Below, in pieces: positions 1 to 224 of a stretch of 224 nucleotides of DNA. A model generated the notes under the pieces. The model was given only the letters and a program-made list of their open reading frames with translations, had not been told where the DNA came from and ran no database searches. Numbering within the stretch: the stretch's first letter is position 1; each line of letters begins with the position of its first letter. The stretch lies in NCBI RefSeq assembly GCF_003334815.1, contig NZ_QOWO01000140.1, one strand, 5' to 3'. The translations under genes were made by a program, and so were the position numbers. The DNA comes from Escherichia coli. Its GTDB lineage: Bacteria > Pseudomonadota > Gammaproteobacteria > Enterobacterales > Enterobacteriaceae.

Positions 1-15
1 AATTTGAGAGACTCA

Positions 16-35
16 CGAACAACTTTCGTTGTTCA
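16..35 (-). other. Spacer RNA hairpin with GAAA (GNRA) tetraloop, 7-8 bp stem
   Basis: Plus 17-23 gaacaac is the exact reverse complement of plus 28-34 gttgttc. Loop is plus 24-27 tttc, which is GAAA in the minus-sense RNA. Positions 16/35 add a G-U closing pair in the minus-sense RNA. Confidence 0.5.
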
Positions 36-75
36 GTGTTTCAATTTTCAGCTTGATCCAGATTTTTAAAGAGCA

Positions 76-115
76 AATATCTCAAACATCACCCGAAGAT
101 GAGTTTTGAGATATT
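76..115 (-). other. Spacer RNA hairpin with UUCG tetraloop (extended stem, about 16 bp with a 2x2 internal loop)
   Basis: Perfect 11-bp inverted repeat: plus 76-86 aatatctcaaa pairs with 105-115 tttgagatatt. Inner stem 89-93/98-102 is 5 bp in the minus-sense RNA, including one G-U pair. Positions 87-88/103-104 form a 2x2 internal loop. Loop is plus 94-97 cgaa, which is UUCG in the minus-sense RNA. Confidence 0.6.
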
Positions 116-148
116 AAGGCAGGTGACTTTCACTCACAAACCAGCAAG

Positions 149-224
149 TGGCGTCCCCTAGGGGATTCGAACCCCTGTTACCGCCGTGAAAGGGCGGTGT
201 CCTGGGCCTCTAGACGAAGGGGAC
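149..224 (-). tRNA. gltW: tRNA-Glu (anticodon UUC), complete 76-nt gene with genomically encoded 3' CCA
   Basis: Reverse complement of 149-224 is GTCCCCTTCGTCTAGAGGCCCAGGACACCGCCCTTTCACGGCGGTAACAGGGGTTCGAATCCCCTAGGGGACGCCA. It folds as a cloverleaf: acceptor stem GTCCCCT/AGGGGAC (7 bp), D-stem GTCT/GGAC, anticodon stem CCGCC/GGCGG with loop CTTTCAC (anticodon TTC, plus-strand 188-190 as gaa), 4-nt variable loop, T-stem AGGGG/CCCCT with T-loop TTCGAAT (plus 165-171), discriminator G, then CCA (plus 149-151 as tgg). From memory this matches the E. coli rrn-operon tRNA-Glu. The four copies (gltT/gltU/gltV/gltW) are identical in the mature tRNA, so the copy cannot be resolved here. gltW is chosen only because it is the minus-strand copy in K-12 reference orientation; that assumes the window is in reference orientation. 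Confidence 0.95.

Follow-up and report, generated by a model that had tools for sequence, protein, structure and literature searches.

Organization of the window

The window, by which we mean the whole 224-nt stretch of Escherichia coli DNA that was analysed, carries on its minus strand a whole tRNA-Glu(UUC) gene followed by 148 of the 193 nt of the spacer that separates tRNA-Glu from 23S rRNA (Table 1). A preliminary description of this DNA had placed a complete tRNA-Glu(UUC) gene there, on the minus strand, which stands: in addition to the ARAGORN prediction (149-224), the Rfam tRNA family (RF00005) matches positions 152-224 of the minus strand (60.1 bits, E = 5.7e-13; gathering score, 29). 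Read along the minus strand, the window opens with GTCCCCTTCGTCTAGAGGCCCAGGACACCGCCCTTTCACGGCGGTAACAGGGGTTCGAATCCCCTAGGGGACGCCA, and its tRNA-Glu is identical to that of K-12 gltU and gltV. The window edge coincides exactly with the tRNA 5' end, so only the downstream identity to rrnC and rrnE bears on the length class of the 16S-to-tRNA spacer. Both tRNA-Ile(GAU) and tRNA-Ala(UGC) are absent from the window, in which ARAGORN finds only tRNA-Glu, and for this reason the window is not of the Ile/Ala spacer type.

Downstream of the tRNA gene, a boxB-like hairpin, a boxA and most of an Rfam StyR-44 match follow one another on the same strand. Protein-coding potential was ruled out, since the window holds just three open reading frames of 20-26 aa, all on the plus strand, opposite to the spacer strand. 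At a permissive threshold no other Rfam family emerged in the window: SNORD24, ceN33, a plastid UTR, mascRNA and Tymo_tRNA-like all scored far under their gathering scores (E = 0.1-0.9) and were set aside as chance matches or tRNA-like echoes. A 10-nt direct repeat occupies positions 11-20 and 132-141 (ACTCACGAAC and ACTCACAAAC; on the RNA strand, GUUCGUGAGU and GUUUGUGAGU), one copy lying after the tRNA and the other after the second hairpin; as an element it would be a short two-copy family, and we take it to be probably due to chance.

Table 1. Features of the 224-nt window and of two chromosomal loci that contain it
Record	Feature	Coordinates	Strand	Basis or context
Window	tRNA-Glu(UUC), complete	149-224	minus	ARAGORN, anticodon TTC, sole tRNA found
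Window	Encoded CCA end of tRNA-Glu	149-151	minus	Read from sequence
Window	tRNA-Glu-to-23S transcribed spacer, first 148 of 193 nt	1-148	minus	ER1709 locus: tRNA ends at 6149, 23S starts at 5955
Window	boxB-like hairpin	76-115	minus	Inverted repeat I1; MFE and centroid folds
Window	Spacer boxA, TGCTCTTTAAAAA	63-75	minus	Motif TGCTCTTTAA(N)AA present
Window	StyR-44 (RF01830), model positions 1-71 of 107	1-71	minus	81.5 bits against gathering score 54, E = 3.5e-13; match cut off by window edge at its 3' end
Window	23S leader-trailer helix, predicted outer part of 5' strand	43-64	minus	RNAcofold with 23S 3' flank of the ER1709 locus
Window	Second spacer hairpin, inside StyR-44 region	14-38	minus	Folds and Rfam StyR-44 consensus structure
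ER1709 (L001)	Window	6001-6224		yieP upstream, tRNA-Asp/tRNA-Trp and hdfR downstream; K-12 rrnC neighbourhood
ER1709 (L001)	5S rRNA	2844-2959	minus	Annotation
ER1709 (L001)	23S rRNA	3054-5955	minus	Annotation
ER1709 (L001)	tRNA-Glu	6149-6224	minus	Annotation
ER1709 (L001)	16S rRNA	6310-7851	minus	Annotation
ATCC 11775 (L002)	Window	6001-6224		Next to clpB, rrnG neighbourhood
ATCC 11775 (L002)	23S rRNA	3052-5955	minus
ATCC 11775 (L002)	tRNA-Glu	6149-6224	minus
ATCC 11775 (L002)	16S rRNA	6310-7851	minus

Identity of the window and its rRNA neighbours

A megablast search of 5,426 complete E. coli genomes recovered the window over 224/224 nt at 100% identity (E = 8e-113). A place covering at least 80% of the window is present in 5,394 of the 5,426 genomes, and the best place is at least 99% identical to the window in 4,985 records. 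The median number of matching places per genome is 7, because window positions 1-77 are also common to spacers of the Ile/Ala type. A tRNA-Glu annotation lies under every BLAST match of the window. In K-12 MG1655, the window is an exact substring of the rrnC (gltU) and rrnE (gltV) spacers, while rrnB (gltT) differs by 4 mismatches (98.2% identity) and rrnG (gltW) is 93.3% identical. The near-identity to the K-12 rrn operons that the preliminary description had anticipated, together with the tRNA-Glu gene, bears out its reading of the whole window as a 16S-23S spacer of the tRNA-Glu type, over the full length.

The 23S and 16S neighbours of the window were deduced from homologous loci, the chromosomal copies inspected being those of ER1709, ATCC 11775, MG1655 and CFT073. 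By annotation or Rfam, 16S lies upstream and 23S downstream on the same strand at all 11 homologous loci inspected, the K-12 rrnG stretch reaching 23S, not 16S; no locus with protein-coding flanks in place of the rRNA genes was found among them. Annotation and Rfam covariance models agree on the operon order on one strand, namely 16S, tRNA-Glu, StyR-44, 23S and 5S, and in the ER1709 locus the covariance models confirm the large-subunit rRNA (2858.8 bits), the small-subunit rRNA (1581.2 bits) and 5S. The homologous loci thus display the arrangement proposed beforehand, with 23S on the left side, 16S on the right side and both on the minus strand. In every homologous locus examined, the start of the minus-strand 23S gene lies 45 nt to the left of window position 1, and in the exact-match copies 16S ends 85 nt to the right of position 224, giving a full 16S-23S spacer of 85 + 76 + 193 = 354 nt. 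For the window itself, the rrn-spacer reading predicts the 23S 5' end, GGTTAAGCGACTAAG..., 45 nt to the left of position 1 on the minus strand, and the 16S 3' end, ...GGATCACCTCCTTA, is expected 85 nt to the right, or about 171 nt if the upstream spacer is rrnB/rrnG-like. The preliminary description gave neither these flank distances nor the spacer signals considered below (the boxB-like hairpin, boxA, the 23S leader strand and the StyR-44 region).

Taken together, the window belongs, on the minus strand, to the internal transcribed spacer of a tRNA-Glu-type rrn operon of E. coli, a reading to which we assign a probability of roughly 0.98. The window is indistinguishable from K-12 rrnC and rrnE, and assignment to a single operon was rejected since both match exactly; an rrnC-like and an rrnE-like copy are not separable by the window, and the same holds for the strain. 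ATCC 11775 carries an exact copy of the window in the clpB (rrnG) context, indicating that copies have been homogenised differently between strains. The window is an already known, textbook piece of the E. coli rRNA operon and holds no new system; in agreement with the preliminary dismissal of an accessory or novel locus, only ordinary rrn spacer features were found.

Antitermination signals and conserved hairpins of the spacer

The boxB-like hairpin abuts boxA on its 5' side; its lower stem of 11 bp is separated by a 2x2 internal loop from an upper stem of 5 bp, which is capped by a UUCG loop. The boxA core TGCTCTTTAA occurs exactly twice in the 12.2-kb ER1709 locus, once in the 16S leader and once in the spacer, against 0.04 occurrences expected by chance, and it is invariant in 9 spacers from four genera, Escherichia, Salmonella, Klebsiella and Enterobacter. 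The leader copy lies 135-144 nt upstream of the 16S 5' end and falls inside the published leader boxA interval, -147 to -133 (PMC10250234). No convincing boxC motif was found in the window. A second boxB-boxA-boxC set has been described upstream of 23S, the set being the signal for the Nus-factor antitermination complex (PMC10250234), and PMC4807359 cites Pfeiffer and Hartmann (1997) for a study of what the spacer boxA contributes to efficient synthesis of 23S. Going by the literature, the spacer boxA would be the signal at which NusB/NusE(S10) are loaded into the rrn antitermination complex, with Rho-resistant transcription of 23S as the outcome.

The second hairpin, with the core GAACAAC-GAAA-GUUGUUC at positions 17-34 and a GNRA loop, corresponds to the conserved stem of the StyR-44 consensus. 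Folding of the spacer beats all 200 shuffles (z = -3.79). Covariation was analysed in an alignment of 9 spacers, comprising E. coli variants, two Salmonella types, K. pneumoniae, K. aerogenes and E. hormaechei, in which boxA and the next 35 nt are invariant. Across these 9 sequences, the boxB-like hairpin has 16 pairs, 97.2% paired and 3 with changes on both sides, and the second hairpin has 10 pairs, 98.9% paired and 4 with changes on both sides. Jointly, 97.8% of the cells of the two hairpins are paired, and shifting the partners by 1-3 columns lowers this to 25-47%. A compensatory change is seen in 7 of the 26 hairpin pairs, and the observed covariation score was reached by none of 500 shuffles, a result that comes from 9 sequences with few independent substitution events. 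Both hairpins covary across genera in this small sample (9 sequences, few independent events), and the covariation does agree with the long-standing model of the spacer region.

The upper stem of the boxB-like hairpin differs in rrnG, Salmonella and Enterobacter copies yet still pairs, and Klebsiella and Enterobacter have a different helix at the place of the second hairpin. In K-12 rrnG (L006), CAGAC-UGUUAA-GUCUU replaces the CUCAUC-UUCG-GGUGAU of window positions 87-104 with pairing kept, so that the swap of upper stem and loop represents heterogeneity within one genome with the structure preserved.

StyR-44 region and the leader-trailer helix

The ER1709 locus contains a full-length StyR-44 match (5963-6071, 124.9 bits), which begins inside boxA (window position 71) and stops 8 nt short of the mature 23S 5' end (5963 versus 5955 in ER1709). 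RNase III leaves a 7-nt extension at the 23S 5' end, and the 8-nt distance is accordingly as expected of a spacer remnant. We know of no promoter or target that belongs to StyR-44 itself. The RNA species was cloned from the spacer upstream of 23S, a location that it has in each of the seven operons, and it is possibly an intermediate of maturation (PMC2943607).

These boundaries bear on whether positions 1-71 give rise to a small regulatory RNA with a function of its own or to a by-product of pre-rRNA processing. StyR-44 has a curated Rfam family, whose gathering score the match exceeds, its region holds a conserved and covarying hairpin, and it is seen on northern blots with growth-rate regulation in S. 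Typhi and E. coli (PMC2943607). However, its discoverers themselves cautioned that the RNA is "processed from longer precursors", perhaps being "merely a metastable RNA intermediate" of maturation (PMC2943607), its boundaries (inside boxA and 8 nt from 23S) fit a spacer remnant, and its conservation is accounted for by the functions of boxA and of the leader-trailer helix. We consider an independent regulatory RNA quite unlikely; StyR-44 is a probable processing fragment of the pre-rRNA spacer and not a gene. It is likewise hardly to be expected that segment 1-71, once released by RNase III and tRNA-processing enzymes, is kept as a functional RNA, for example one that titrates Nus factors or reports the rate of rRNA synthesis. 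The sole support for such a functional fragment is its detectability on northern blots in the literature.

Sequences flanking the rRNAs pair into leader-trailer helices that are cut by RNase III, and the last 45 nt of the spacer, to the left of the window, presumably hold the RNase III site. When the spacer was folded together with the 23S-5S spacer of the ER1709 locus, RNAcofold gave a continuous helix beside the mature 23S ends, left of the window, and in addition predicted pairing at window positions 5-11 and 43-64. By this thermodynamic prediction, positions 43-64, together with 5-11, may pair with the 23S-5S spacer.

Extrachromosomal copies and tRNA-only matches

A copy or fragment of an rrn operon carried on a plasmid, a phage or a transducing particle, in place of a chromosomal operon, could in principle be the source of the window. 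In the complete E. coli genomes, 10 of 37,958 places are plasmid-borne, and matching records also occur in PLSDB and in the phage collection. By these counts, however, the prior for a plasmid origin is only about 0.03% of places, and the plasmid and phage records inspected are whole or partial rrn operons with unchanged gene order that are unannotated, UNVERIFIED, or evident chromosomes of 4.8-5.4 Mb filed as plasmids. Four odd records were inspected: two "plasmids", one of 7.2 kb from E. coli and one from Salmonella Senftenberg, and two UNVERIFIED "phage" contigs, of which one is labelled Staphylococcus phage. In each of them Rfam places 16S, tRNA-Glu, StyR-44 and 23S in this order, and a mobile or extrachromosomal origin was rejected since they are all pieces of rrn operons or mislabelled chromosomes. 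Among the plasmid, phage and genome matches inspected, no non-rrn context was found for the full-length window. Such an origin is highly improbable, and it would leave the identity of the window as an rrn spacer unchanged.

Records filed as phages, several of them UNVERIFIED, or as plasmids (L008-L010, L013 and L014; CP088871.1, OR844775.1, OR850364.1, OR850889.1 and PV358070.1; and the PLSDB records of 4.8-5.4 Mb) are really rrn operon fragments or whole chromosomes, and the "Staphylococcus phage" record carries an enterobacterial spacer. Contaminated or mislabelled phage and plasmid records of this kind can mislead searches of mobile-element collections.

A further alternative is a tRNA-Glu gene that stands alone, outside any rRNA operon, and is followed by an intergenic region of unrelated sequence. 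Matches limited to the tRNA do occur, for example in Aeromonas phage AP1 and Dickeya phage phiDP10.3 (window 146/149-224 only). The alternative nevertheless has a negligible probability and is refuted by the full-length identity to rrn spacers: this 100% identity extends over the 148 nt downstream of the tRNA, with boxA and StyR-44, and all full-length matches inspected sit between 16S and 23S.

Proposed role of the spacer

In the scheme set out here, the present data supply the identity of the window, the tRNA and the order of the genes, along with the sequence of boxA and the two covarying hairpins, while factor binding, the processing steps and the reach of the leader-trailer helix into the window are drawn from the literature or from predicted folds. 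The operon would be transcribed into one long pre-rRNA containing 16S, tRNA-Glu, 23S and 5S. RNase P and 3' trimming nucleases excise tRNAs from pre-rRNA, and tRNA-Glu would be cut out of its precursor in this way. Downstream of the tRNA, the boxB-like hairpin and then boxA would constitute a second antitermination set, in which the nascent boxA RNA would bind NusB-NusE(S10); NusB-NusE, with NusA, NusG, SuhB and S4, would let RNA polymerase cross the 23S gene fast and in a Rho-resistant state. The distal spacer, with the 45 nt to the left of the window, would provide the 5' strand of the 23S leader-trailer helix, the substrate of RNase III, and the leftover spacer fragment would be the species cloned as StyR-44. 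Nothing in the data contradicts the explanation of the window as an rrn spacer.

The result is a negative one in that the window can be removed from lists of candidate new systems. The region is among the most studied bacterial non-coding DNA, with known uses in strain and operon typing by heterogeneity of the internal transcribed spacer and as an assembly marker of rrn copies.

Comparison with known systems

The K-12 rrnC and rrnE spacers (gltU and gltV) equal the window in all 224/224 nt, in strand logic and in the distances to 23S (45 nt) and 16S (85 nt), and their mutual differences lie only outside the window. The K-12 rrnB and rrnG spacers (gltT and gltW) are alike in tRNA-Glu, boxA and architecture; rrnB, however, differs by its 4 mismatches in the window and by a 16S-to-tRNA spacer of 171 nt instead of 85 nt, and rrnG, at 93.3% identity, by the replaced upper stem and loop of the boxB-like hairpin, which nonetheless pair. 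The distance from 16S to tRNA-Glu thus falls into two length classes, 85 nt (rrnC and rrnE) and 171 nt (rrnB; L003 2-172). Over the part fetched, rrnG (L006 346-430) shares the longer 16S-to-tRNA sequence, the extra block of which is unrelated in sequence.

Spacers of the Ile/Ala type (rrnA, rrnD and rrnH) share window positions 1-77, that is, boxA and the StyR-44 region, but they carry tRNA-Ile and tRNA-Ala rather than tRNA-Glu and are without positions 78-224. The two types meet in a CFT073 copy (L007 301-628; NC_004431.1 3858177-3858504), in which about 104 extra nt lie between two copies of window positions 51-77. The extra nucleotides consist of a tRNA-Ala 3' end (CCCGCATAGCTCCACCA) and the tRNA-Ala-to-23S spacer of Ile/Ala-type operons, so that this copy is a Glu/Ala chimaera in which boxA is present twice; an intact tRNA-Ala is not called by ARAGORN. 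Recombination or gene conversion between rrn operons is the probable origin of the chimaera, which may correspond to the "ribosomal spacer loop" of the older literature.

The Salmonella Senftenberg record (NZ_LN868946.1; L011 about 1408-1446) has a 39-nt insert directly 3' of the tRNA-Glu CCA that is absent from E. coli. At its end the insert has GGTCAAACCTCCAGGGGACGCCA, which repeats in degenerate form the T-arm and the acceptor 3' half of tRNA-Glu and suggests the scar of a partial tRNA duplication in the spacer.

Compared with the Rfam StyR-44 family (RF01830), the window matches positions 1-71 of 107, including the conserved hairpin, and the rest lies beyond the window edge. The boxB-boxA-boxC set of the rrn leader has the boxA core TGCTCTTTAA and a preceding hairpin in common with the spacer of the window. 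The spacer boxA reads ...TTTAAAAA, and the leader boxA, as we take it, reads ...TTTAACAA. The leader set includes boxC, whereas the window is without a clear boxC. In the lambda nut site, boxA comes first and is followed by boxB, which binds the N protein, a protein with no host equivalent (PMC10250234), whereas in the window the boxB-like hairpin precedes boxA.
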